Shown: positions 5,680-25,955 of the stretch, one piece after another | Numbering within the stretch: the first letter of the stretch is position 1 | Layout: each line of letters opens with the position of its first letter | NCBI GenBank assembly: GCA_963813815.1 | Contig: CAWFAD010000016.1 | Span: 480,001-544,000 of the forward strand | Direction of reading: 5' to 3' | Source: an uncultured bacterium | Lineage (GTDB): Bacteria > Krumholzibacteriota > Krumholzibacteriia > Krumholzibacteriales > Krumholzibacteriaceae | DNA: 64,000 nucleotides | Notes under the pieces: generated by a model | The model's database searches: none | What the model was told of the DNA's origin: nothing | Seen by the model: only the letters and a program-made list of their open reading frames with translations | Program-made: the position numbers and the translations under genes

Positions 5680-6945
5680 ATGGGCAGCACGAAGATAGCG
5701 ATCATCGGACTCGGATACGTGGGGCTTCCGCTCGCGGTCGAGTTCGGCAAGCAGTACGACACCGTGGGGTTCGACGTCAACGCGCGAAGGGTCGCGGAAC
5801 TGAAACGCGGCGAGGATCGAACGCTCGAAACGAGCTCCGGCGACGTCAAGGCTGCGAAGCGCCTCCTCGTGACGACCGAGATCGAGGATATCCGCCCCTG
5901 CAACGTTTACATCGTCACCGTGCCGACCCCCATCGACGATCACAAACGCCCCGATCTCACCCCCGTCGAGCGCGCCACGGAAACGGTCGGAAAGGTGCTC
6001 AAGAAGGGGGACATCGTCGTCTACGAGTCGACCGTCTATCCGGGCTGCACGGAGGAGTTCTGCGTGCCGATTCTCGAGCGGCTCTCGGGGCTCGCTTTCA
6101 ACGGGGATTTTTTCTGCGGGTACTCTCCCGAGCGGATCAATCCCGGCGACAAGCAGCACACCGTGACGAAGATCAAGAAGATCACGAGCGGCTCGACGCC
6201 GGAGGTCGCCCGCAAGGTCGACGAGCTCTACCGCTCGATCATCACCGCCGGCACGCATCCGGCTTCCTCGATCAAGGTCGCCGAGGCCGCGAAGGTGATC
6301 GAAAACTCGCAGCGGGACATCAACATCGCCTTCGTGAACGAGCTCGCGCTCATCTTCGACCGCCTCGGCATCGACACGCTCGAGGTGCTCGAAGCGGCGG
6401 GCTCGAAGTGGAACTTTCTGCCTTTCCGGCCGGGCCTCGTCGGCGGCCACTGCATTGGAGTCGATCCGTATTACCTCACGCACAAGGCGCAGGAGATAGG
6501 GTACCACCCCGAGGTCATCCTCGCCGGGCGGCGCATCAACGACAACATGGGGATCTTCATCGCGGGCAAGATCGTCAAGCTCATGATCCACAAGGGGCAC
6601 CGGGTGCAGGGCGCCCGCGTGCTCATTCTCGGCGTCACCTTCAAGGAAAACTGTCCCGACATCCGCAACTCGCGCGTGGTCGACATCGTGCGCGAGCTCG
6701 CTGATTTCGGATGCAAGGTGGACGTGTACGATCCGTGGGCCGAGAGCGCGGAGGTCGCCGAGGAGTACGGGTTCCCGACCGTCGACCGGAGCGCGGTCTC
6801 CGCGGGAGGCTACGACGCGGTCGTCCTCGCCGTCGCCCACGAGAAGTTCCGCGAGCTCGATATCCTCTCCCTCAAGGGCGAACGGGGAGTCGTCTTCGAC
6901 GTGAAGGCCTTCCTCGACAAAAAAGTGGTGGACGGACGGCTCTGA
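5680..6945 (+). CDS. tviB: UDP-N-acetylhexosamine C6 dehydrogenase (TviB/WbpO/CapL family)
   Basis: IGLGYVGLP, YESTVYPG, YSPERINPG, GGHCIGVDPYYL and TFKENCPDIRNS motifs. Confidence 0.9.
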   Translation: MGSTKIAIIGLGYVGLPLAVEFGKQYDTVGFDVNARRVAELKRGEDRTLETSSGDVKAAKRLLVTTEIEDIRPCNVYIVTVPTPIDDHKRPDLTPVERATETVGKVLKKGDIVVYESTVYPGCTEEFCVPILERLSGLAFNGDFFCGYSPERINPGDKQHTVTKIKKITSGSTPEVARKVDELYRSIITAGTHPASSIKVAEAAKVIENSQRDINIAFVNELALIFDRLGIDTLEVLEAAGSKWNFLPFRPGLVGGHCIGVDPYYLTHKAQEIGYHPEVILAGRRINDNMGIFIAGKIVKLMIHKGHRVQGARVLILGVTFKENCPDIRNSRVVDIVRELADFGCKVDVYDPWAESAEVAEEYGFPTVDRSAVSAGGYDAVVLAVAHEKFRELDILSLKGERGVVFDVKAFLDKKVVDGRL

Positions 6946-8407: not shown

Positions 8408-9937
8408 TCAGGGTTCGAGTCCCGGTCCGATCCGCGACAGCCCCCGTTTCGCCCCTTCGCTGCGATCGTCCTGCGCCAGCGCCTCGAGGTACGCCGCTCC
8501 GGCGCGCAGCGTGTCGCCGCGCGAGAGATACGCGTCGCCGGCCCGAACGAGGTTCGCGGAGAGCCCCTGCGGCGTGTCGCGTGCGACGGTGAAGTTCGTG
8601 AAGATGACGAGCGCTCCGAGGGCGGCGGCGAGGAGCGCGAGCTCGGCGAGGGAGCGCCGCCTCGCGAGCGAGGCGAGACCCGTGACCGCGGCCGCCGCGA
8701 AGGGTATGAGAAAGGGGATCGCCGGAAGACGGTATCGAGCGGTGACGTAAAACGCGACGGCGGTCGCGAGATAGGCGAGCGCGCCGCCGTAGAGGAGCCA
8801 CAGGCCGCGGGCGCGGTCGCGCGAGAGAAACATGCCGAGGAGCGCGAGCGGTGCGACGATTCCGAAGGTCAGAAGCGGCAGCCGCAGAACTCCCGGGAAA
8901 CGCCGGTGAAAGTAAAAGCTCTCGACGTTCGCCCGCTCGTGGCGGTTCCAGAAGAAGAGAAACTTCTGCCACGCGAGCGCCGACCACTTCGCGGGGTGAT
9001 CCCGTCCCCAGCGAAGTCCCGCGGCAAACCAGAAACGCGACACGCCGGACTCGCCGAGCGCGCGCCCCGAATCGTCGCGGGCGATCTCCGTCATGAGCCT
9101 CCATTGCTCCTCCGGCGAGCGGCCGAGCGATTTCCCGCGATAGGACGGCGGCGCGTAGTAGCCGTTCGCGCCGGCGTTGTTGCCGATGTAGAAATTGATG
9201 CCGCCCCCCGTCGTGAGGGGGATGAATTCCCCCGCGCGGAGATAGTTGCGGATGACCAGGGGGGCGAGGGCGAGCGAAACTCCCATGACGATCGGGAGCG
9301 CGCCGCGGGCCAGTCGCGGTCGTCCCGCCCCGCCGAGGCGGACGTGGAGCAGGACGAAGGGGAGAAGCAGCAGCGTCGGCGGGTTCGCCGCGATCGCGGC
9401 GCCGAGGACGATCCCGCCGGCGAGCATCGCCGCCGGCCCCGGCCGCCGGGGGAGGACGAAGGCGGCGACGGCGAGCGTGTTCAGAAAAACGATGAGCGTC
9501 GCCGGCAGGATGAGCCCCTCGAAGAAGATGAGCGGCGCGTAGAGCGCGGCGATAGCGCCCGCGACGAGCGCCGCGGCGGTGGACGAGAAGAGGCGCCGCG
9601 TCACGAGCGCGATGAGAACGACCGAAGCCGTTCCGAGCGCCGCCTGTAGCGCTCTCGCGGCCGCGGGGACGGGGCCGAAGATCCGATAGAGGGCGGAAAG
9701 GAGCCACGGGTAAACGGGGGACTGCATGAGGGTCGTCGGCCCCGCGTCGCCGCCGAAGGCGAGAGCCCGGGCCCAGGCGTCGTACGTCGCCGAGTCGAGC
9801 TGGAGGGAGGAGGCGAGAGGATTGAGCCGCTCCGTGAAAAAGAGATGGAGAAGACGGATCGCGAGGGCGGACGCCGCGACGATGCCGGCGGCGAAGAGCC
9901 ACCTCGCGTTTCGATCGATGCGAGCGCGCCGGGTCAT
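8408..9937 (-). CDS. ArnT/PMT (GT-C fold) glycosyltransferase with C-terminal TPR
   Basis: LDSATYDAWA, P.YP, GGINFYIGNN..ANG and RYRLP motifs; many TM helices; terminal TPR-like helix pair. Confidence 0.8.
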   Translation of the reverse strand: MTRRARIDRNARWLFAAGIVAASALAIRLLHLFFTERLNPLASSLQLDSATYDAWARALAFGGDAGPTTLMQSPVYPWLLSALYRIFGPVPAAARALQAALGTASVVLIALVTRRLFSSTAAALVAGAIAALYAPLIFFEGLILPATLIVFLNTLAVAAFVLPRRPGPAAMLAGGIVLGAAIAANPPTLLLLPFVLLHVRLGGAGRPRLARGALPIVMGVSLALAPLVIRNYLRAGEFIPLTTGGGINFYIGNNAGANGYYAPPSYRGKSLGRSPEEQWRLMTEIARDDSGRALGESGVSRFWFAAGLRWGRDHPAKWSALAWQKFLFFWNRHERANVESFYFHRRFPGVLRLPLLTFGIVAPLALLGMFLSRDRARGLWLLYGGALAYLATAVAFYVTARYRLPAIPFLIPFAAAAVTGLASLARRRSLAELALLAAALGALVIFTNFTVARDTPQGLSANLVRAGDAYLSRGDTLRAGAAYLEALAQDDRSEGAKRGLSRIGPGLEP

Positions 9938-9989
9938 GCGCCCCGAGTGTAGAACGTCCCGGCGCGGCGCGTCAATCCGAAGCCGCGGC

Positions 9990-10736
9990 TCATTCCTCCG
10001 CCGGTTCGCCGATCGTAAAGTCGTAGTTGACCGTGAGGGAGCCGCAGACAAAGTCTTCGTACTGGGAATCGAGCGGCACCTGCCCGATGACGGCCGGCGT
10101 AACGGTGAACCGGCCGGCGGTGAAATCGATGCCCGCGACGAACCCGAGCACGGTCAATGAAGACTCGTATTCGTACTGGCCGAAATTGTAACCGGCGCAG
10201 AGTCCCACCGACGCGCCGAGCCAATCGTTGACGGAGAGGGACGTCGAAGCCCCCGCCTCGAGATAGGCGCCCTTCGCCAGAACGTCGTCGTAGTACAGGG
10301 TCAGATAGGGCTCCATCTCCATGTCGGCCGAAAGCCCGAGGAAGAACTCCTCGGAATCGTTATCCGGCTCGTCGACCGTGTGCAGGATGTACGTTATGAG
10401 TCCGAGGTTGAAGAAGATGGATTCCGACCACGGCAGGCAATTCTCGTAGGTCAGGGTGAGATCGGTCTCGCAGAGCCCGCGTTTCGTTCTCTCCTCGGCG
10501 GTGACGTCGTCCACCTCGACGTATTCCTGGTGGCTGAACCAGGCGTCGAAAGTGAAACCGCCTATGGAAACGCCGCCCCCCGGCTGTATCGCGTACGTAT
10601 CCGAGAGGAGCTGGCCGCGCCAGAGGTACTTGCCGACCACGGCGCCGTAAACGTTTCCCGTGACCTCGGCATGGAGCGCCGGCGTCGAGAACGCGAGCAG
10701 GAGCAGAGCGACGATAATGATACTGATATTTTTCAT
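9990..10736 (-). CDS. Putative outer-membrane beta-barrel (TIGR02001/TorF-like)
   Basis: Signal peptide, KYLWRGQ..S...AIQP, ETDLTLTY and alternating beta-strand pattern; GGAGG RBS before MKNISII. Confidence 0.7.
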   Translation of the reverse strand: MKNISIIIVALLLLAFSTPALHAEVTGNVYGAVVGKYLWRGQLLSDTYAIQPGGGVSIGGFTFDAWFSHQEYVEVDDVTAEERTKRGLCETDLTLTYENCLPWSESIFFNLGLITYILHTVDEPDNDSEEFFLGLSADMEMEPYLTLYYDDVLAKGAYLEAGASTSLSVNDWLGASVGLCAGYNFGQYEYESSLTVLGFVAGIDFTAGRFTVTPAVIGQVPLDSQYEDFVCGSLTVNYDFTIGEPAEE

Positions 10737-19222: not shown

Positions 19223-20281
19223 CTACGCCTTGCCGCCTTCGAGGTTCTTGCCGCAGCCCATGCAGAACTTCGCGCCCGCCGGAACCTCGGTCTTGCAGCC
19301 GGGGCATTGGATCGAGCGCGCGACCGGCGCGCCGCAGGAGGCGCAGAAGCGCGCATCGGCCGCTATCTCCGCGCGGCATTTCGGGCAGAGGACCGCGTCT
19401 TTGACGGCGGACGCTCCGCCCTTCATTCCTTGGGCGATCATGCCTGGGATCATGAACCCGAGGCCGGCGCCCAGGCCGATTCCCATCCCGCCGGCCGCAG
19501 CGCCGCCCGCGCCGCCGTCTCCGCCGGAAGTCGCGGCGTCGCCCATGGCCTTCGCCGCCTTGAACTTGAAGAAGCTGTCGAGATCGCCCACCGCGGCGAG
19601 GCCGCTCCGCTCGTCGATCATCTTCTGCACTTCGGGGGGCGGGGTGATGGCGCTGAGGTAGAAGTCGGCGAGCTCCATGCCGTATTTGCGAAAGTCGCCG
19701 ACGAGGCGCTCCTTGATCTCGACCGCGAGCTCGTCGTACTGGCGCGGCAGATCGAAGATGGTGTCGAGCTTCTCGCCGAAGAGGTCGTTGATCCGGGCGA
19801 CGATCACGTCACGGAGATAGTCGCCGATCATCCCGCTCGTGTAGAAGCCCTGCGTGCCGACGACCGCGTTGATGAAGAGCGCGGGCTCGGCGATCTTGAA
19901 GGTGTAGACGCCGAAGGCTCGGAGCCGCACGAGGCCGAGCTTCGAGTCGGTGAAGGCCACCGGATCCTTCGTGCCCCATTTCTGGTTGATGAAGCTCTTC
20001 ATGTTGACGAAGAAGACCTCGGCGCGGAACGGGCTCTTGAATCCCCATGGGAGCGAGATGATCTTCGTGAGGATCGGCAGGTTCTTCGAGGTGAGGGTAT
20101 GTCGTCCGGGTCCGAAGATGTCGAGCCCCTTGCCGTCCTTGAAAAAGACCGCCATCTGGTTGTCCCGGACGATGAGCTGCGCGCCGATCTTGATCTCGGC
20201 GGACCCTTCCGGTGGAATGCGGTGAACGATCTCGTCGCCTCCGAGATCGAACCATTCCAGGATTTCCATGAACTGAGACAT
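19223..20281 (-). CDS. SPFH/band-7 (YdjI-like) protein with C-terminal double zinc ribbon
   Basis: [20 protein letters not shown]...NLP, KWGT, LRAFG, Gly-rich linker, CPKC/FCASCG/CPGC/FCMGCG. Confidence 0.9.
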
Positions 20282-20356
20282 ACCGGCCTCCCCTTCGCAT
20301 AGATAGAGTTTGTTCGTTGCGGGCGTCGTGCCCGGCCGCCCGATTGAGGACGAATG

Positions 20357-20372
20357 AGCAAAGGTAATGCCA
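20357..20372 (-). promoter_or_regulatory. sigma54 -24/-12 promoter of the SPFH operon
   Basis: Minus strand TGGCATTACCTTTGCT, near-consensus GG-N10-GC, about 75 nt upstream of the start. Confidence 0.75.
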
Positions 20373-20534
20373 AATCGGCGGTTAGCGCCATTTTGGAGGT
20401 CCGGCTGGCGCCGGCGGCCGGCCGGCCGCCGATATCCCATTTTCAAAAAAGGAGATATGACCTATACTGCAACCCGGGGTGGAGCGGTCCGGGGGAGGGT
20501 CGAGCGTGGAGTCCTGGCACGAAAGGAGTCGGTC

Positions 20535-20918
20535 GTGGCTCTCTTTGCTGCTTTCGGCATCGGTATCATCTTTCTTTTCATCTTCATGGTGATCCTCGGC
20601 GGGCTCTTTATGTGGCTCGCCGCCAAGATCTCCCGCATCGAGGACTCGAGCTTCGGCCGGGCGCTCGTCGCGGCGATCGGGGCGAGCTTCGTCGCGGTTC
20701 TCGCCGCGTTTCTCTTCAACCTGCTGCCCGTCTTCGGCAACATGTTCGGCTTCATCGTCGGGCTCATCCTGTCGATTCTCGTCATCAAGGCCGCCTTCCG
20801 CACCTCCTTCGGGAAGGCGCTCCTCGTCTGGGTTTTCAATCTCGTCGCGACGCTCATCGCCCTGGGGCTCGCGGCCGTTCTCACGGCGAGCTCGTTTCTC
20901 ATCGGACGCTCCATCTAG
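20535..20918 (+). CDS. Small multi-pass membrane protein
   Basis: AAGGAG RBS and GTG start; about 4 hydrophobic helices. Confidence 0.7.
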   Translation: MALFAAFGIGIIFLFIFMVILGGLFMWLAAKISRIEDSSFGRALVAAIGASFVAVLAAFLFNLLPVFGNMFGFIVGLILSILVIKAAFRTSFGKALLVWVFNLVATLIALGLAAVLTASSFLIGRSI

Positions 20919-20974
20919 CTCCGCGGCGGCTGCGCGCGAGTCGCCGCGGCGAGACGGGAGGCGGAATCGTCGCC

Positions 20975-22177
20975 ATGAAAGAACGCGGTGTTCCGATCGT
21001 GATGTATCACGGCGTCGGCCCCGATCGGGAGGGGTGGCCGTGGAACTACCTGTTCACGCCCTCTGACGTTTTCGAGCGCCAGATGCGGGCCCTCCGGGAT
21101 GAGGGATGGACGACGGTCACCCTCGCCGAGCTTCACGCGCACATGGCCTCGGGCGCGCCGCTTCCGCCGAAGCCGGTCGTGCTCACCTTCGACGACGGCT
21201 ACGCGGACAACTGGGTCTACGCGTACCCGCTGCTCAAGAAATACGGTCATCGGGCGGCGATCTGGATGAGCACCGATTTCGTCGATCCGCGCGGCGTGCC
21301 GCGTCCCACGATCGAGGACGTCTGGGCAGGGCGCCTTCGCGAAGCGGAGATCGATCCGCGCGGCTATCTCTCGTGGGCCGAGATGCGCCGCATGGCGGAG
21401 AGCGGCCACGTCGAGATACAGAGCCACGCGATGACGCACACGTGGTATCCGGTCGCGGAGGATATCGTCGACTTCCACCGTCCGGCGGGGGTGGACGATT
21501 ACGAGCCGCCGCTCTGGCTCGGCTGGAACATGTTCCCGGGACGGAAGCACGAGAGCATGCACCTGAAGCTCTCCGATCTCGTGCCGCTCGGCACGCCGGT
21601 CTACCGGCACGAGAAATCCCTCGCGGCGCGCCGCTATTTCGAGGACGAACGTCTGACGGAGAGGCTTCGCGCCCACGTCGCCTCCTCGGGCGACACGGCG
21701 TTTTTCGAGGAGCCCGGGTGGCGCGAGGAGCTCATGGAGATCGTGCGCGAGCACGGAGTGGGCGGCGGCCGGCTCGAGACGGAGAGGGAGTACGCCTTCC
21801 GCGTTCGCCGGGAGCTCGTCGAGTCGCGCAGGATGATCGAGGAGGCGCTCGGCGCGAAGGTGGAGTTCTTTTGCTGGCCGGGAGGCGGCCGGAGACCCGA
21901 AACGCTCCGCATGGCCGAGGAGGCGGGGTATCTCGCGACGACCACGCACTTCGAGGACCGCTCGCGGCGGAACGTCCGGGGACAGAACCCGCGCGAGCTC
22001 TCCCGCATCGGTTCGGGATCGCCGTGGACGTGGCGGGGAATCGCCATCAAACGCACCGGCCCCGGCTTCTTCATCGCCAACCTCGAGACCTTCGCCGGCG
22101 GCGAAAAATCGATTTGGCGCCTTCGCGCCCATAAACTACAATATCTCCTCCGGCACTTCGTTTCGGGCGCGCGCTGA
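20975..22177 (+). CDS. Polysaccharide deacetylase (CE4/NodB-like)
   Basis: PIVMYH, VVLTFDDGY.DN, IQSHAMTH and FCWPGG motifs. Confidence 0.9.
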   Translation: MKERGVPIVMYHGVGPDREGWPWNYLFTPSDVFERQMRALRDEGWTTVTLAELHAHMASGAPLPPKPVVLTFDDGYADNWVYAYPLLKKYGHRAAIWMSTDFVDPRGVPRPTIEDVWAGRLREAEIDPRGYLSWAEMRRMAESGHVEIQSHAMTHTWYPVAEDIVDFHRPAGVDDYEPPLWLGWNMFPGRKHESMHLKLSDLVPLGTPVYRHEKSLAARRYFEDERLTERLRAHVASSGDTAFFEEPGWREELMEIVREHGVGGGRLETEREYAFRVRRELVESRRMIEEALGAKVEFFCWPGGGRRPETLRMAEEAGYLATTTHFEDRSRRNVRGQNPRELSRIGSGSPWTWRGIAIKRTGPGFFIANLETFAGGEKSIWRLRAHKLQYLLRHFVSGAR

Positions 22178-22195
22178 CGAGCGCGAGGGGGAAGC

Positions 22196-23917
22196 ATGTT
22201 TCCGCCGCTGCCACCGGCGCTCATACGGAACGTCATTTATCCGGTCTACCGGGGGCTCCGGCGCGACCGGCTGCTCTCCGTCCTCGAGGAGCTCGAGCGG
22301 AACCAGTGGCTCTCCGCGCGGGAGATCGAGGACCTCCAGTGGAGCCGGCTCGCCGCGCTCATCCGCGGGATTGCCGCGTACGTGCCGTTCTACGAGGACC
22401 TGCTGAAACAGATCTCGCTCGCGCCCGAGGACCTGCAGAGCCCCGAGGATTTCCGGAGGATCCCGTTCCTCACGAAGGAGATCATCCGGAGCGCCGGGGC
22501 CCGGATGACGTCGAAGGATCCGATTCGGCGCGGCTTCCCGTCGAGCACGGGAGGGTCGACGGGGGAACCGCTCTTCTTTTACGGCGACGTTTCGACGGGC
22601 CCGCTCCGCAGGGCGAACGGGATGCGCGGGTTCCGATGGGCGGGGATCGACATCGGCGACCGGCAGGCGGTGCTCTGGGGCACCCACCTCGGCTCGGGGC
22701 GGCGCGAGCGGGCCGCGCAGGCGGCGCGGAACTATTTCAGCAACACGCTCTACCTGTCGACCTTCGACATGTCCGACGCGTCGATGGAGCGGTACGCGGC
22801 GAGGCTTCGCGCCTTCCGGCCGCAGCTCTTCACCGGATACCCCTCGGCGCTCGCGCTCTTCGCCGCCTTTCTCCGCTCCCGGCGGGCACAGGATATCCGG
22901 CCGCGCGCGGTCATCGCGAGCGGCGAGGAGCTCTACGAAAGCCAGCGCGAGCTCATCGAGGCCGTGTTCGGCTGCCGGGTCTTCGACCGGTACGGGAGCC
23001 GCGAGTTCGCCGGGGTGGCGCACGAATGCGAGGAGCACCGCGGACTCCACGTCATGAGCGATCTCTTTTACGTCGAGGTCGTCACCGAGAGCGGCCGCCC
23101 GGCGAGCGAGGGCGAGATCGGCGAGATCGTCGTCACGGACCTCTTCAACACGTACATGCCCTTCGTCCGCTACCGGACCGGCGACCTCGCCGTGACGACG
23201 GGGCGGACGTGCCCGTGCGGACGCGGGCTGCCGCTCCTCGAGCGGATCGAGGGACGGAGCTTCGACGCCATCGTCACGGCCGACGGCAGGCATATCGGCG
23301 GCTTTTTCTGGACGTGGCTCTCGCGCGCGGTGCCGGGCATCCGGCGCTTCCAGGTCGAGCAGCGCGAGCGGAGCGGCGTCATCTTCCGCTTCGTGCCGGG
23401 CCCCGAGTGGCGCGACGAATACGAGCGCTCGCTCGAGAAGAAAATCAGGGAGAACTGCGGCGACGGGTTCGGCGTTTCCTTCGAGCGCGTCGGAGAGATT
23501 CCCCTCACGCCGTCGGGCAAGTCGAAGTTCATCATTTCGAACGTCGGCGAGCGGCTCGTCGTGAAGTCGAAGATCCATCGCGCGACGATCACGGCCGAGG
23601 AGCCCGACGGACCCGACTGCATCGTGATCGACGAGGAGATCATGGAGCTCGCCAACATCTCCCGGAACGAGAAGGTGCTCATCGTCGATATGACGAACGG
23701 CGAACGCGTCGACGCCTTCGCCGTGCCGGGCGCGCGGGGCGGGGGAGCGGTGACGGTCTGCGGCGCCGCGGCGAAGCTCGTTCACACGGGGGACACCGTC
23801 GGCATCATGGCGTTCACCTGGTCCGAAGGCCCGACGGGGCGGTTCGCCAACATTCTCGTCGACGAGCGGAACCGGTTCGCCCGGTACCTCACCGAGAACG
23901 CCGGAGATACGGTCTAG
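22196..23917 (+). CDS. PaaK/CapK-family adenylate-forming ligase fused to a C-terminal PanD-like domain lacking the cleavage site
   Basis: STGGSTGEP, GYPS, YGSRE, PFVRYRTGD, IEGR and SGK motifs; from about 23549 KSKIHRAT..ID..NGER..GAAA.LV..GD.V.IMAF. Confidence 0.88.
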   Translation: MFPPLPPALIRNVIYPVYRGLRRDRLLSVLEELERNQWLSAREIEDLQWSRLAALIRGIAAYVPFYEDLLKQISLAPEDLQSPEDFRRIPFLTKEIIRSAGARMTSKDPIRRGFPSSTGGSTGEPLFFYGDVSTGPLRRANGMRGFRWAGIDIGDRQAVLWGTHLGSGRRERAAQAARNYFSNTLYLSTFDMSDASMERYAARLRAFRPQLFTGYPSALALFAAFLRSRRAQDIRPRAVIASGEELYESQRELIEAVFGCRVFDRYGSREFAGVAHECEEHRGLHVMSDLFYVEVVTESGRPASEGEIGEIVVTDLFNTYMPFVRYRTGDLAVTTGRTCPCGRGLPLLERIEGRSFDAIVTADGRHIGGFFWTWLSRAVPGIRRFQVEQRERSGVIFRFVPGPEWRDEYERSLEKKIRENCGDGFGVSFERVGEIPLTPSGKSKFIISNVGERLVVKSKIHRATITAEEPDGPDCIVIDEEIMELANISRNEKVLIVDMTNGERVDAFAVPGARGGGAVTVCGAAAKLVHTGDTVGIMAFTWSEGPTGRFANILVDERNRFARYLTENAGDTV

Positions 23918-23979
23918 GGTACTTTCCGGCGGCGCCCGTTTGTACTATATTTCCCCCCGGCGCCGGGGCGTGGAGCGTT

Positions 23980-24339
23980 ATGAAACGGTTGCTGCTCAAA
24001 TCGATGATCCTCAAGGCCACGGTGACGCAGGCCGACGTGCATTACGTCGGCAGCATCACGATCGACCAGGATCTCATCGAGAAGGCGAATCTCTGCGAGC
24101 ACGAGAACGTTCTCGTCGCCGACCGTTCGAACGGCCGCCGTCTCGAGACGTACGTCATCGTCGGGGAGCGGGGGAGCGGCGTCATCGCGATGAACGGCGC
24201 GGCCGCGCATCTCATCAACGAGGGGGACGTCGTCGACATCATGGCGTTCAGCTGGTCGAACGGGGAAGTGCATCCCCTCTTCATCGAGGTGGACCGGGCG
24301 AACCGTTTCGCGGGTTATCACGACGGGGACGTTTCGTGA
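23980..24339 (+). CDS. panD: Aspartate 1-decarboxylase proenzyme (atypical)
   Basis: HYVG-SITID cleavage site, NG.RLETY and NGAAAH; GGAG RBS; lies inside the 22306..24339 ORF. Confidence 0.9.
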   Translation: MKRLLLKSMILKATVTQADVHYVGSITIDQDLIEKANLCEHENVLVADRSNGRRLETYVIVGERGSGVIAMNGAAAHLINEGDVVDIMAFSWSNGEVHPLFIEVDRANRFAGYHDGDVS

Positions 24340-24379
24340 GGCGCCCCGCCGCGCGCCGCGGCCCGGCCGGAAAGGGAAC

Positions 24380-25501
24380 ATGTTCTCCATGAACCTGCGG
24401 TTGTTTCGCCTCATGTCGATCCCGGTCGAGATCAACCTGAGCTGGCTCTTCGTGCTCGCGCTCATGACGTGGACCTTCGCGACCGGCTTCTACGCGGACG
24501 CGCTTCCCGACGGCAGCAGGCTCGAGCTCTGGGGGCTCGGTTTCATCACGGCGATTCTGGTGTTTGTCTCGATCCTGCTCCACGAGTTCAGCCATTCGAT
24601 CGTCGCCTCCCGCAACGGTCTTCCGATACGCAAGATCACGCTCTTTCTCTTCGGCGGCGTCGCCCAGATGGAGCGCGACGTCGATAACCCGACGGTCGAG
24701 CTCAAGATGGCGGCGGCCGGCCCGGCGATGTCGGTCGTGCTGGCGGCTCTGTTCTTCGCGCTCTCGAGGATCTTCTCGCAACACCGTCTCGTGTACGTCC
24801 TCATGAACAATCTCGCCTACGTCAATCTCCTCGTGCTCGGATTCAACATGGTGCCGGGTTTTCCGCTCGACGGCGGCAGGATACTCCGCGCCGCGATCTG
24901 GCGCGCGACGGGAAACGTGCAGAAGGCGACGCGCATCGCGAGCCGGATCGGCGGCGCGTTCGCGATCGTGCTCATCGTCTACGGCGTGATCAATCTCTTC
25001 GGCGGCGTCATTATCGGCGGACTCTGGCTCATCTTCATCGGTTTTTTCCTGCGCCAGGCGGCGCAATCGGGATATCTGCTCGTGACCTTCAAGCAAACGC
25101 TCGGGCACCTGCGGGTCTCCGACGTCATGCGCTCGCCGGTCGTGACGGTGGACGCCTCGGAGAGTCTGCGTCGCCTCGTCGACGACTACGTTCTCCGGTA
25201 CCACTACGCGTCGTTTCCGGTGATCGAGGGAGGACGGCTCGCGGGCATGGTCTCGCTCAAGGACGTCAAGCGGGTCGACATGTCGGCGTGGGGCGAGGCG
25301 AGCGCGGGGGAGATCGCGGATCGCGGGATCGTGCCGTACGCGCTCAGCCCGGAGCAGCCGGCCGAGGCGCTCGTCGGCCTCATGATGAAAAAAGGATACG
25401 GCCGGCTGCCGGTCGTGGACGGCGAGGGCAGGGTGGTCGGGATCGTATCGAGGCGCGACCTGATGGAAACGATCAAGATGATGGCGTATCTCGAGGAGTA
25501 G
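24380..25501 (+). CDS. Site-2 protease (M50) with CBS pair
   Basis: HEFSH, AAGP, FNMVPGFPLDGGR and two CBS domains. Confidence 0.93.
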   Translation: MFSMNLRLFRLMSIPVEINLSWLFVLALMTWTFATGFYADALPDGSRLELWGLGFITAILVFVSILLHEFSHSIVASRNGLPIRKITLFLFGGVAQMERDVDNPTVELKMAAAGPAMSVVLAALFFALSRIFSQHRLVYVLMNNLAYVNLLVLGFNMVPGFPLDGGRILRAAIWRATGNVQKATRIASRIGGAFAIVLIVYGVINLFGGVIIGGLWLIFIGFFLRQAAQSGYLLVTFKQTLGHLRVSDVMRSPVVTVDASESLRRLVDDYVLRYHYASFPVIEGGRLAGMVSLKDVKRVDMSAWGEASAGEIADRGIVPYALSPEQPAEALVGLMMKKGYGRLPVVDGEGRVVGIVSRRDLMETIKMMAYLEE

Positions 25502-25502
25502 C

Positions 25503-25703
25503 TCAGGCCTCCTTTTCTTCCTCCATATCCTCGAAGTCCTCGAACTCGTCGGTCTCGGCGGGCTCTTCGATCTCGTCCTCGAGGATCGAGTTGTATGCTC
25601 CGTACTTCTTTACTTTCTTGTCGCTGTCGTCCTGAAGCTTGCGTTTGGGATCCGGTTCCGGACGATGGTTCCGCTTCTTCTTCGGCATGGGCCTGCGCTT
25701 CAA
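25503..25703 (-). CDS. Small charge-segregated protein
   Basis: AAGGAG RBS and upstream TATACT; basic N-half, D/E-rich tail; start is 25703 (TTG) or 25688 (ATG). Confidence 0.55.
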   Translation of the reverse strand: MKRRPMPKKKRNHRPEPDPKRKLQDDSDKKVKKYGAYNSILEDEIEEPAETDEFEDFEDMEEEKEA

Positions 25704-25857
25704 AGTAAGGTCGCTCCTTTCCAGATGAAGCCGTTATGCCTTCGCTACCGATTGAAACCGCCTGCCATAAGTATAGCAAAAACGATTTCCATTTTCACCA
25801 GTCTGCAAAAACCGTGACAATTCGGCGGGGGAGACGGTTCGGGGGAGCTGCGAAGGA

Positions 25858-25883
25858 GGAGGGCCGCTCGGGGGCGGCCCTCC
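25858..25883. terminator. GC-rich hairpin, possible terminator
   Basis: GGAGGGCCGC-N6-GCGGCCCTCC downstream of the 25956 gene; weak U-tract. Confidence 0.4.
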
Positions 25884-25955
25884 AACCTCTTGATTCATAG
25901 TCGATTCCGCGCTTCGCGGAGCGTTCCGGAAAAGGCCGGCCGCGCGGCGCGGCGC

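Follow-up and report, generated by a model that had tools for sequence, protein, structure and literature searches.

The locus comprises four co-oriented, closely spaced genes, with gaps of 18 to 62 bases, within a window of 64,000 nucleotides (the whole stretch of DNA analyzed): a small membrane protein, a CE4-family deacetylase, a fusion of a ligase to a PanD-like domain, and a stand-alone PanD (Table 1), an arrangement that matches the initial annotation. The membrane protein had been placed at 20535, which would be an internal start; the first start lies at 20367, and the true start may be internal. A relative of this protein adjoins the cluster only in two loci of the same genus (L113 and L117) and lies ∼6 kb away in genome G032, and the protein is probably outside the functional unit. 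An M50-CBS gene comes after PanD in 18 of 26 related loci and still adjoins it in G032, where the fusion is absent; it is probably a conserved neighbor by synteny only.

Table 1. Features of the cluster, with positions in the window.
Feature	Position	Strand	Basis
Small multi-pass membrane protein	20367..20918	+	183 aa from first start; weak Yip1 match (E 1.7e-5, 25.2 bits, under the 28.6 cut-off)
CE4-family (PgaB-like) de-N-acetylase, 402 aa	20969..22177	+	Pfam Polysacc_deac_1, E 6.6e-22
Fusion gene, 573 aa	22196..23917	+	PaaK-type ligase models and Asp_decarbox
CapK/PaaK-like adenylate-forming ligase, residues 1-451 of the fusion	22196..23548	+	N-terminal helical region, ANL N-domain, ANL C-subdomain
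PanD-like domain, residues 452-573 of the fusion (with stop)	23549..23917	+	Asp_decarbox, E 5.4e-24 (residues 454-560)
Stand-alone PanD, 119 aa	23980..24339	+	TIGR00223, 115.9 bits (cut-off 106)
M50 metalloprotease with two CBS domains	24380..25501	+	Pfam Peptidase_M50 and CBS

The deacetylase has PgaB/BpsB N-deacetylase domains as its nearest solved chains in the PDB, and its motifs TFDDGY, H153-x3-H157 and CWPGG are unchanged across six homologues. No N-terminal signal sequence is visible on inspection by eye. The ligase part of the fusion matches PaaK-type models over residues 36-360 (E 1e-47 to 1e-30), with every score under its curated cut-off (103 vs 646 bits for the PaaK equivalog), and its PDB matches are the PaaK entries 4r1l, 2y27 and 2y4o, the last spanning residues 36-447. 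The CapK_C domain (PF27533) is precomputed on nearly all of the best 120 database relatives listed, which supports assignment to the CapK-like branch, as originally proposed. The conserved motifs SSTGGSTGEP, YGSRE, RYRTGD, EGRS and PSGK, which we take to be of the ANL type, are intact. Structurally, the model of the fusion (mean pLDDT 84.2) contains a confident barrel over residues 453-565. The fusion cannot be put down to faulty assembly: 27/29 relatives in the order carry it at full or near-full length, and most of the best 120 database relatives listed are exactly 573 residues long.

Both PanD copies share the fold and sequence family of the pyruvoyl-dependent homotetramer PanD (PF02261, TIGR00223). 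Judged from their residue patterns, they are degenerate in complementary ways, a point absent from the initial annotation. The stand-alone copy of the window, which aligns without gaps to residues 1-93 of M. tuberculosis PanD (2c45), retains the Gly24-Ser25 cleavage site, Arg54, Thr57, Tyr58 and Asn72, and carries Met for Lys9, Leu for His11 and Asp for Ile86. Related stand-alone copies have M9 and D86 in 23/23, Leu, Met or Val in place of His at position 11 in 23/23, and Y22, G24, S25, R54, T57, Y58 and N72 each in 23/23; Lys9 occurs in 0/113 parsed database relatives (of 120 listed). The fused domain, at 76.5 bits against TIGR00223 (cut-off 106), retains Lys9, His11 and Arg54 (each 25/25 among related fusions) and has lost Gly24-Ser25, Tyr22, Tyr58 and Asn72. 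Position 24 is Asp in 25/25, position 25 is Cys or Ser, and position 58 is Phe in 23/25; among the 110 relatives parsed from the best 120 listed, K9 and H11 are found in 110/110 and Gly-Ser in 0/110. The fused domain is predicted to be without a pyruvoyl group. Canonical PanD has the full residue set in one chain, including in sister families of the same class, which have a single PanD with K9, H11 and I86 in 19/19 sequences read and no fusion among the matches listed. Here the set is split: Lys9 and His11 are confined to the fused copy, and the stand-alone copy alone has the cofactor site and Tyr58.

Published work describes Lys9, His11, Tyr22, Gly24, Pyr25, Arg54, Thr57 and Tyr58 as strictly conserved in PanD, with Lys9 holding the substrate alpha-carboxylate and both Lys9 and Arg54 coming from the other subunit (PMC3314653); the active site lies between two subunits, Arg54 being contributed by the neighbor (PMC6969166). 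Since the retained residues are complementary, and Lys9 and Arg54 reach the active site of the neighbor in canonical PanD, the pair looks like an obligate heteromer. The stand-alone PanD would give Thr57, Tyr58 and the self-cleaving Gly24-Ser25, from which the pyruvoyl cofactor arises, and the fused domain would give Lys9, His11 and Arg54. Full aspartate decarboxylase sites would then form only at interfaces between the two, likely in a 2+2 ring atop a ligase dimer. Arg54 is also kept in all stand-alone copies (23/23), where it would face a dead site, an observation that sits against a strict 2+2 model. All fusion-bearing genomes fall in one order, and the residue pattern therefore represents one evolutionary event rather than independent replication. 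A tree neither supports nor contradicts the fused and stand-alone copies as sisters.

Reliance on a degenerate paralogous subunit is known from trypanosomatid AdoMetDC/prozyme and deoxyhypusine synthase (PMC5201418, PMC3663545), the former a pyruvoyl decarboxylase and the latter an interface-site enzyme, and a paralog without the cofactor is predicted to be needed here too. Unlike prozyme, which acts allosterically, the degenerate PanD domain is predicted to contribute catalytic residues of its own. The proposed pair further differs from these heteromers in that it is bacterial and has its degenerate copy covalently fused to an unrelated ligase.

The initial annotation had noted the lack of panB and panC in the window, which could be read as a sign that PanD does not serve pantothenate synthesis. 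Both genes are indeed absent from the window and from the whole 2.53-Mb assembly (90.8% complete), the only one to lack both, but the relatives overturn the argument. panC is present in 119/121 genomes sampled from the phylum, including 29/29 relatives of the order, panB in 30/30 relatives of the order, and the two lie side by side, for example in G076:C89; their absence here is very probably an assembly gap. The fused and stand-alone genes are the sole PanD-family genes of these relatives, and the same decarboxylase thus very probably also supplies pantothenate synthesis. This is consistent with a purely housekeeping role, which we consider unlikely, in which the Met9 PanD would be an aspartate decarboxylase homotetramer for pantothenate and the fused domain non-catalytic. 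The latter would be a scaffold or a PanZ/PanM-like regulator, for example coupling the decarboxylase to ligase-bound CoA or ATP, and the acid used by the ligase would be unrelated to beta-alanine. The score of the stand-alone copy exceeds the curated PanD cut-off, unfused ligase paralogs work without any PanD, and in enterobacteria a partner protein that binds a CoA species is needed for PanD activity and regulates it (PMC3473359, PMC3398536; PanZ also in PMC3975893). PanZ, however, has a GNAT fold, is no PanD paralog and supplies no active-site residues. Genome G032 (same family, 94% complete) has panB and panC and retains the GT4 glycosyltransferase gene, an intact Met9-type PanD and the M50-CBS gene, but no fusion at the locus, and its assembly as a whole yielded no CapK-like ligase; either the Met9 PanD can work alone, or the fusion sits in unassembled DNA. 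Against the housekeeping role, a scaffold would not be expected to hold Lys9, His11 and Arg54 invariant in the counts given above while all cofactor-side residues were lost. Lys9, strictly conserved in PanD (PMC3314653), is replaced by Met in all stand-alone copies, in exact step with the emergence of the fused copy, and the intact motifs of the ligase imply an enzyme, not just a sensor.

Genomic neighborhood analysis places the fusion next to the stand-alone PanD in 22 of 26 loci, the other four genomes carrying the stand-alone gene elsewhere in the assembly. The pairing with CE4, on which the initial annotation had relied, recurs: CE4 lies directly 5' of the fusion in 14/26 loci, and a homologous CE4, 36-57% identical along the full length, accompanies the unfused ligase paralog as its neighbor in 3/6 polysaccharide loci. 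It does not extend to families f2 and f3, where CE4 and GT4 each adjoin the fusion in 0/5 loci. A GT4 gene is found upstream in 13/26 loci, the complete order GT4, CE4, fusion in 11, and an adjoining SAM methyltransferase in 6/26. Of six loci with unfused ligase paralogs (35-56% identity), five place them among clear polysaccharide genes, and the fusion of G038:C148 is embedded in a complete polysaccharide locus of the export type, with Wza-like, Wzc-like, initiating-transferase, GT4, pyruvyl-transferase and CE4 genes. The surface-glycan link proposed earlier is thus supported by the relatives and not by the window itself, which has no glycosyltransferase near the cluster and no GT4 within its 64 kb. 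Because much of the neighborhood is syntenic across the order (SPFH, AKR, S9 and OPT genes), adjacency of CE4, GT4 or M50 is weak evidence of shared function.

The best explanation, which we hold tentatively, is that a heteromeric PanD pair feeds beta-alanine to the CapK-like ligase for a glycan amide, the ligase acylating an amine freed by CE4. The deacetylase would de-N-acetylate a HexNAc residue put in place by the GT4 encoded just upstream in relatives. The ligase would adenylate beta-alanine and transfer it to the freed amine, a direction preferred by a narrow margin. Beta-alanine would be consumed in place, and the amide would form on the cytoplasmic side, at a sugar of the polysaccharide repeat unit. 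The resemblance to Dlt invoked by the initial annotation holds as an analogy only: as in D-alanylation of teichoic acids, an adenylating enzyme would put a small amino acid on a cell-envelope polymer, but the cluster has no carrier protein, MBOAT (DltB) or DltD-like gene, the linkage would be through an amide rather than an ester, and the ligase belongs to a different subfamily.

The same heteromer could also serve the opposite chemistry, a rather doubtful alternative. The ligase would adenylate a uronic acid carboxyl on the lipid-linked repeat unit for attack by the beta-alanine amine, giving a uronoyl-beta-alanine amide, counterpart of the glycine amide in a Vibrio polysaccharide, with CE4 tailoring the same glycan independently. 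PanC, the known beta-alanine ligase, takes beta-alanine as the amine, and the protein library contains predicted PanC-PanD fusions, which are a precedent for the preferred reading as well: PanD is joined there to a beta-alanine-consuming ligase, although gene-call merges may account for some. Taurine, of which beta-alanine is the carboxylate analogue, is joined by an amide bond to GalNAcA in the type 1 capsule of S. aureus, whose locus gave CapK its name. A UDP-glucose/GDP-mannose dehydrogenase family gene lies in the window (5680-6945), albeit 15 kb from the cluster. The only genetic precedent found for a related ligase is V. cholerae VpsH, required for a small amino acid on a lipid-linked repeat unit: when vpsH is deleted, GulNAcA of the lipid-linked disaccharide lacks glycine (PMC13463779), and there the activated carboxylate must be that of the sugar. 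This precedent fits uronate amidation at least as well as the transfer to a de-N-acetylated sugar that the initial annotation put first. It is, however, genetic rather than biochemical, and VpsH has a predicted relation to phenylacetate-CoA ligase and only partial similarity to CapK-like proteins (PMC13463779). Uronate amidation also leaves no role for the CE4 that recurs beside the fusion and the unfused paralogs. The present ligase shares ANL-type motifs, the CapK_C domain and a polysaccharide-locus setting with CapK-/PaaK-like ligases of polysaccharide loci, but none of those described has a decarboxylase domain, and VpsH takes glycine from the cell pool.

The gene order GT4, CE4, ligase would mirror the reaction order of beta-alanyl transfer to a freed amine, as in bacillithiol and mycothiol synthesis, where a GT4 (BshA/MshA), a deacetylase (BshB/MshB) and a ligase (BshC/MshC) follow the same three-step logic: HexNAc on, acetyl off, amino acid onto the freed amine. 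The parallel, seen in the gene order of 11 loci, together with the adjoining methyltransferases and a CE4 lacking a visible signal sequence, is consistent with a soluble product. On this reading, which we judge very improbable, the product of GT4, CE4 and ligase would be a beta-alanyl-glucosaminide (a compatible solute or a conjugate resembling bacillithiol or mycothiol), or the ligase would make beta-alanyl-CoA for aspartate fermentation. Among NCBIfam models, BshA ranks second or third for GT4, but at 107-124 bits against a cut-off of 273.7; GT4 is also under the MshA cut-off, and its best match, likewise under cut-off, is the PEP-CTERM/XrtA exopolysaccharide glycosyltransferase model. The deacetylase is of the CE4 and not the LmbE type, the ligase is of another family, the amino acid would be thiol-free, and no beta-alanyl-CoA ammonia-lyase was seen in the cluster. 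The genes around fusion copies and paralogs include those for flippase, export, initiating-transferase and pyruvyl-transferase proteins.

The locus points to a decarboxylase that would be encoded by two genes and coupled directly to a glycan-modifying ligase. If the preferred reading, beta-alanine transfer from the heteromeric PanD pair to a glycan amine, is true, half of a beta-alanine-making enzyme would be fused to a glycan ligase, with the complementary half encoded next door.

The five genes between 20367 and 25501 are closely packed, with intergenic gaps of 18 to 62 bases, and gene calls, profile matches and relatives all support the co-oriented four-gene cluster with a CapK/PaaK-PanD fusion described in the initial annotation. 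A scan of 20200-25900 found no terminator-like site between the cluster genes, using a consensus that does not fit this phylum. The fusion is a genuine gene and is conserved: within the order, 27 of 29 related genomes carry it, and its length is exactly 573 residues in most of the best 120 database relatives; the near ones bear the public names Krumholzibacteria, Krumholzibacteriota or Latescibacterota. The matches listed for the six other families of the class all stop short of the PanD-like part. An AlphaFold2 model built on a 13-sequence alignment (mean pLDDT 84.2, pTM 0.73) has helices at its N-terminus, followed by the N-domain and C-subdomain of an ANL enzyme (the latter at about residues 360-448) and by a confidently modeled beta-barrel (453-565). 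When the whole-fusion alignment was used as a locus query, its KSKIH pattern drew canonical panD, and just one of the 80 loci, L003, proved to be a true relative of the fusion; relatives were therefore taken from the genome search. In 22 of 26 related loci the stand-alone PanD lies immediately 3' of the fusion; in the remaining four genomes it is elsewhere in the assembly, near a contig end in two of them. One relative, G038, has two full-length fusion genes (locus L120 on contig G038:C148, and another on G038:C135) and a single stand-alone PanD, which adjoins the second copy.

Genes of the cluster and other features of the window
Feature	Position	Strand	Evidence or remark
UDP-glucose/GDP-mannose dehydrogenase family gene	5680-6945	+	11-15 kb upstream, with the next feature
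PMT_2-type glycosyltransferase-like membrane protein	8408-10051	-	
ORF, 470 aa	12035-13447	-	inosine-uridine nucleoside hydrolase domain and FmdE domain, an unusual pairing
SPFH/Band-7 protein with C-terminal double zinc ribbon	19223-20446	-	divergent to the cluster; syntenic in most relatives
Small membrane protein	20367-20918	+	first gene of run; weak Yip1 match below cut-off
CE4 deacetylase, 402 aa	20969-22177	+	second gene of run; Pfam/NCBIfam profile matches
PaaK/CapK-like ligase (first ~450 residues) with PanD-like domain (last ~120), 573 aa	22196-23917	+	profile matches
PanD, 119 aa	23980-24339	+	fourth gene of run; passes curated PanD cut-off
M50 protease with CBS domains	24380-25501	+	fifth gene of run; profile matches
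TPR and CHAT-domain protein, 1084 aa	38021-41275	+	
ORF, 181 aa			follows the CHAT-domain gene
ORF, 2289 aa	41921-48790	+	follows the 181-aa ORF

The two PanD-like sequences of the cluster differ in kind. By its curated score (TIGR00223, 115.9 bits, 114.8 in the genome scan, cut-off 106), the stand-alone protein is a member of the PanD family and a predicted aspartate 1-decarboxylase. It aligns gap-free to residues 1-93 of Mycobacterium tuberculosis PanD, so the standard numbering applies. The Gly24-Ser25 self-cleavage site, Arg54, Thr57, Tyr58 and Asn72 are present in the window copy and in all 23 orthologues. Lys9 and His11 are replaced in all of these, and Lys9 occurs in 0 of the 113 sequences parsed from the best 120 database relatives. 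The fused domain passes the Pfam Asp_decarbox model (84.7 bits, threshold 25) and falls short of TIGR00223 (76.5 bits vs 106). It has lost Gly24-Ser25 and Tyr58, and none of the 110 sequences parsed from the best 120 database relatives of the fusion has Gly-Ser; Lys9, His11 and Arg54 are kept, the first two in 110 of those 110.

Residues at PanD positions in 23 stand-alone orthologues and 25 fused domains
Position (canonical residue)	Stand-alone	Fused
9 (Lys)	Met 23/23	Lys 25/25
11 (His)	Leu 20, Met 2, Val 1	His 25/25
22 (Tyr)	kept 23/23	variable
24 (Gly)	kept 23/23	Asp 25/25
25 (Ser)	kept 23/23	Cys 23, Ser 2
54 (Arg)	kept 23/23	Arg 25/25
57 (Thr)	kept 23/23	Thr 20, Ala 5
58 (Tyr)	kept 23/23	Phe 23/25
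72 (Asn)	kept 23/23	variable
86 (Ile)	Asp 23/23	Ile 11, Ser 8, Gly 6

PanD has been studied as a homotetramer with every catalytic residue in one chain. One study lists Lys9, His11, Tyr22, Gly24, Pyr25, Arg54, Thr57 and Tyr58 as strictly conserved and has Lys9 and Arg54 supplied by the other subunit, Lys9 pairing with the substrate alpha-carboxylate (PMC3314653). In a second paper the active site likewise lies at the boundary of two subunits, and Arg54 belongs to the neighbor (PMC6969166); a third shows Thr57 to be required for cofactor formation and cites Tyr58 as the proton donor (PMC3975893). Judged by residue content, the two copies would be complementary half-enzymes, with the residues of the cofactor subunit in the stand-alone protein and those of the neighboring subunit in the fused domain. 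Combined with the published subunit contributions, these residue sets suggest that a complete decarboxylase site would form only at the interface between the two. In the sister families of the class there is one canonical PanD, and Lys9, His11 and Ile86 are present in 19 of 19 of its sequences read, which argues that the division of labor arose together with the fusion. The tree groups the fused domains in one clade (100/99) and the stand-alone copies in a second (99/82), and neither falls within the clade of the sister families' PanD; the tree does not settle the relation between fused and stand-alone copies.

Three observations count against an obligate heteromer. Genome G032, of the same family and 94% complete, carries the GT4 glycosyltransferase, a Met9-type PanD and the M50-CBS protease, but CE4 and fusion are cleanly missing. 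The assembly has panB and panC but no detectable CapK-like ligase. Arg54 is kept in the stand-alone copy, although a strict 2+2 model needs none there. Finally, all carriers share one ancestor, so the residue counts are not independent. The G032 locus (L196, G032:C31, 5577-8340) is a natural test case for whether a Met9 PanD is active alone, and the literature searched, including PMC4537548, yielded no report of a Lys9 mutant (K9A). In its fullest form, the proposal is that both genes are obligatory for a pyruvoyl aspartate decarboxylase whose sites are split between their products, one chain bringing the cofactor and proton donor and the other, on a CapK-like ligase, Lys9, His11 and Arg54; all beta-alanine of the order, including that for CoA, would pass through, and possibly be gated by, an envelope-glycan tailoring enzyme whose product feeds an undescribed beta-alanyl polysaccharide modification. 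We regard this complete scheme as rather unlikely.

Three further proteins are worth noting. P0247 (148 aa) is an apparent chimera of a fused-type N-terminal half (KSKIH, Asp-Gly at 24-25) and a stand-alone-type C-terminal half (Asp86), and could reflect recombination or assembly collapse between the two tandem PanD-like repeats. P0246 is a stand-alone-type PanD with Met9 and Asp86 in which His11 is still present, a possible intermediate judging by these residues. P0245 is fully canonical and, among canonical sequences, the most similar to the fused domain (45% identity).

The split arrangement also bears on pantothenate synthesis. Neither panB nor panC was found in the window's assembly (2.53 Mb, 16 contigs, completeness 90.8%), an absence that could be taken as an argument against a pantothenate role. 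That argument fails on the relatives: of 121 genomes sampled from the whole phylum, 119 have a panC match above cut-off, all 29 relatives from the order among them, and each of 30 such relatives has panB. In relatives panB and panC adjoin each other (e.g., G076:C89:83749-85403) and both are missing from the window's genome alone, so that one unassembled segment explains both absences, which are probably a single assembly gap rather than biology. The initial annotation suggested seeking a canonical panBCD set elsewhere in the genome; in the relatives, which have panB and panC, PanD-family matches are limited to the stand-alone gene and the fused domain. Since no other PanD occurs there, the pair likely supplies beta-alanine for pantothenate as well. 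The same counts led to the rejection of two ideas, that the ligase replaces PanC (panC in 119/121) and that this PanD does not serve pantothenate (panC together with panB).

The ligase half does not qualify as a phenylacetate-CoA ligase by profile score, falling far below the PaaK equivalog cut-offs (TIGR02155, 103.2 bits vs 646.3; NF041878, 113.7 vs 700). It has the features of an ANL/CapK-like enzyme, namely YGxxE, RYRTGD, segments that we take to be the phosphate-binding loop, GR hinge and C-terminal catalytic Lys, and a CapK_C domain (PF27533, precomputed on nearly all database relatives). An alignment of 13 relatives shows these motifs conserved, and they can be matched to PaaK structures; because they are intact, the ligase is very probably an active adenylating enzyme. 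In the region of the PaaK acyl pocket, ligase and PaaK align poorly. The best NCBIfam match, DVU_1553, gave no functional lead, being unmentioned in the D. vulgaris fitness paper (PMC10102598). Fusion to a beta-alanine generator points to beta-alanine as one substrate of the ligase. Predicted fusions of canonical PanD to PanC, PanB, CoaX (type III pantothenate kinase) or an FAD-binding domain (PF00890) occur among metagenome proteins (P0259, P0268, P0315, P0325, P0351 and P0385). They fit PanD joining enzymes of its own pathway, and some may be merged gene calls, given their partial domain coverage.

The deacetylase was assigned by its Pfam domain together with the Asp-Asp and His-x3-His metal/catalytic motifs: Polysacc_deac_1 scores 78.2 bits (threshold 23.1), and TFDDGY, H153 and H157 are invariant in six homologues. 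It does not reach the PgaB equivalog cut-off (101 vs 321.9). The adjacency of CE4 and fusion, on which the initial annotation relied, holds in 14 of 26 loci, and the five loci of families f2 and f3 all lack it; the region is broadly syntenic across the order, which weakens adjacency as evidence. Unfused ligase paralogs (35-56% identity) lie amid clear polysaccharide genes (flippases, GT4/GT2, pyruvyl transferase, UDP-GlcNAc 2-epimerase, MBOAT) in five of six loci examined. The sixth, L192, has only an AsnB-like amidotransferase; a seventh, L189 (G025:C2), was left out of the count because the ORF filter gave almost no genes. In three of the six, a full-length homologue of the window's CE4 (36-57% identity, same motifs) lies directly beside the paralog. 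On this comparative evidence, CE4 and CapK-like ligase form a recurring two-gene module that would predate the PanD fusion.

Within the window, signs of a glycan are limited to the CE4 beside the ligase and a UDP-sugar dehydrogenase 15 kb off. Of 26 related loci, 13 have a GT4 glycosyltransferase gene immediately upstream of CE4 or the fusion, and 6 have an adjacent SAM methyltransferase. The fusion copy on G038:C148 belongs to a complete locus for polysaccharide export, with Wzc-like, Wza-like, initiating-transferase, GT4, pyruvyl-transferase and CE4 genes around it, and the pyruvyl-transferase neighborhood is common to two more loci, L121 and L125. At one same-genus locus, genes for GDP-sugar dehydratase and epimerase lie next to the methyltransferase-CE4-fusion run. 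The best NCBIfam match of the relatives' GT4 is the PEP-CTERM/XrtA exopolysaccharide model TIGR03088 (202-225 bits vs 409), with BshA second or third, all below cut-off; equivalog scores are 107-124 bits vs 273.7 for BshA and 73-96 vs 462.5 for MshA. No BshA/MshA-type GT4 occurs in the window, and the best GT4 of its genome (55% identity, contig C8) has unrelated genes as neighbors and was therefore not taken for the missing partner.

Two directions of chemistry are compatible with these genes. In the first, proposed in the initial annotation, the ligase would adenylate beta-alanine and pass it to the amine that CE4 has exposed. On this reading no gene of the GT4-CE4-ligase-PanD run is without a role, and the logic resembles that of bacillithiol and mycothiol synthesis. 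In the second, the ligase would adenylate a sugar uronate, which the beta-alanine amine then attacks. This follows the precedent of vpsH, which encodes a ligase-like protein partly similar to CapK-like proteins; when it is deleted, the lipid-linked disaccharide of Vibrio polysaccharide is reported to lack the glycine amide (PMC13463779). Transfer of adenylated beta-alanine is narrowly preferred on account of the conserved CE4 partnership.

Several known systems resemble the cluster in part. Unlike Dlt D-alanylation, with which the proposed transfer had been compared, it has no DltC carrier, DltB (MBOAT) or DltD beside the ligase, none appearing in the Pfam results for the cluster and its neighbors. 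TIGR03099 and TIGR03098 are presumably the decarboxylase and AMP-ligase pair of the XrtA/PEP-CTERM exopolysaccharide system; the decarboxylase there is a PLP enzyme whereas here it is pyruvoyl-type, TIGR03098 is absent from the ligase's NCBIfam matches at E <= 0.01, and the likeness is confined to the relatives' GT4. The nearest functional analogies are trypanosome AdoMetDC/prozyme, a pyruvoyl enzyme activated by a dead paralog, the DHS heterotetramer and the enterobacterial PanZ-PanD pair. PanD, CapK-like ligase and CE4 are each of known kinds. What appears new is the splitting of PanD catalytic residues over two genes, with the carboxylate-binding half welded to a glycan ligase. The literature searched contained no description of such a residue split, of a CapK-PanD fusion, of beta-alanyl glycans or of PanD in Krumholzibacteria.

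If true, the split site would be a clean bacterial case of complementary degeneration locking paralogs into a heteromer, and a second kind of pyruvoyl enzyme reliant on a dead paralog after trypanosome AdoMetDC/prozyme. Public records name these genes 'aspartate 1-decarboxylase' or 'phenylacetate-CoA ligase', and neither name fits what they encode, a warning for annotation. To our knowledge, CapK-like ligases are a widespread and almost uncharacterized family of polysaccharide loci. The fusion would hint strongly at their function, with beta-alanine as the likely small substrate and a CE4 deacetylase as the recurrent partner.
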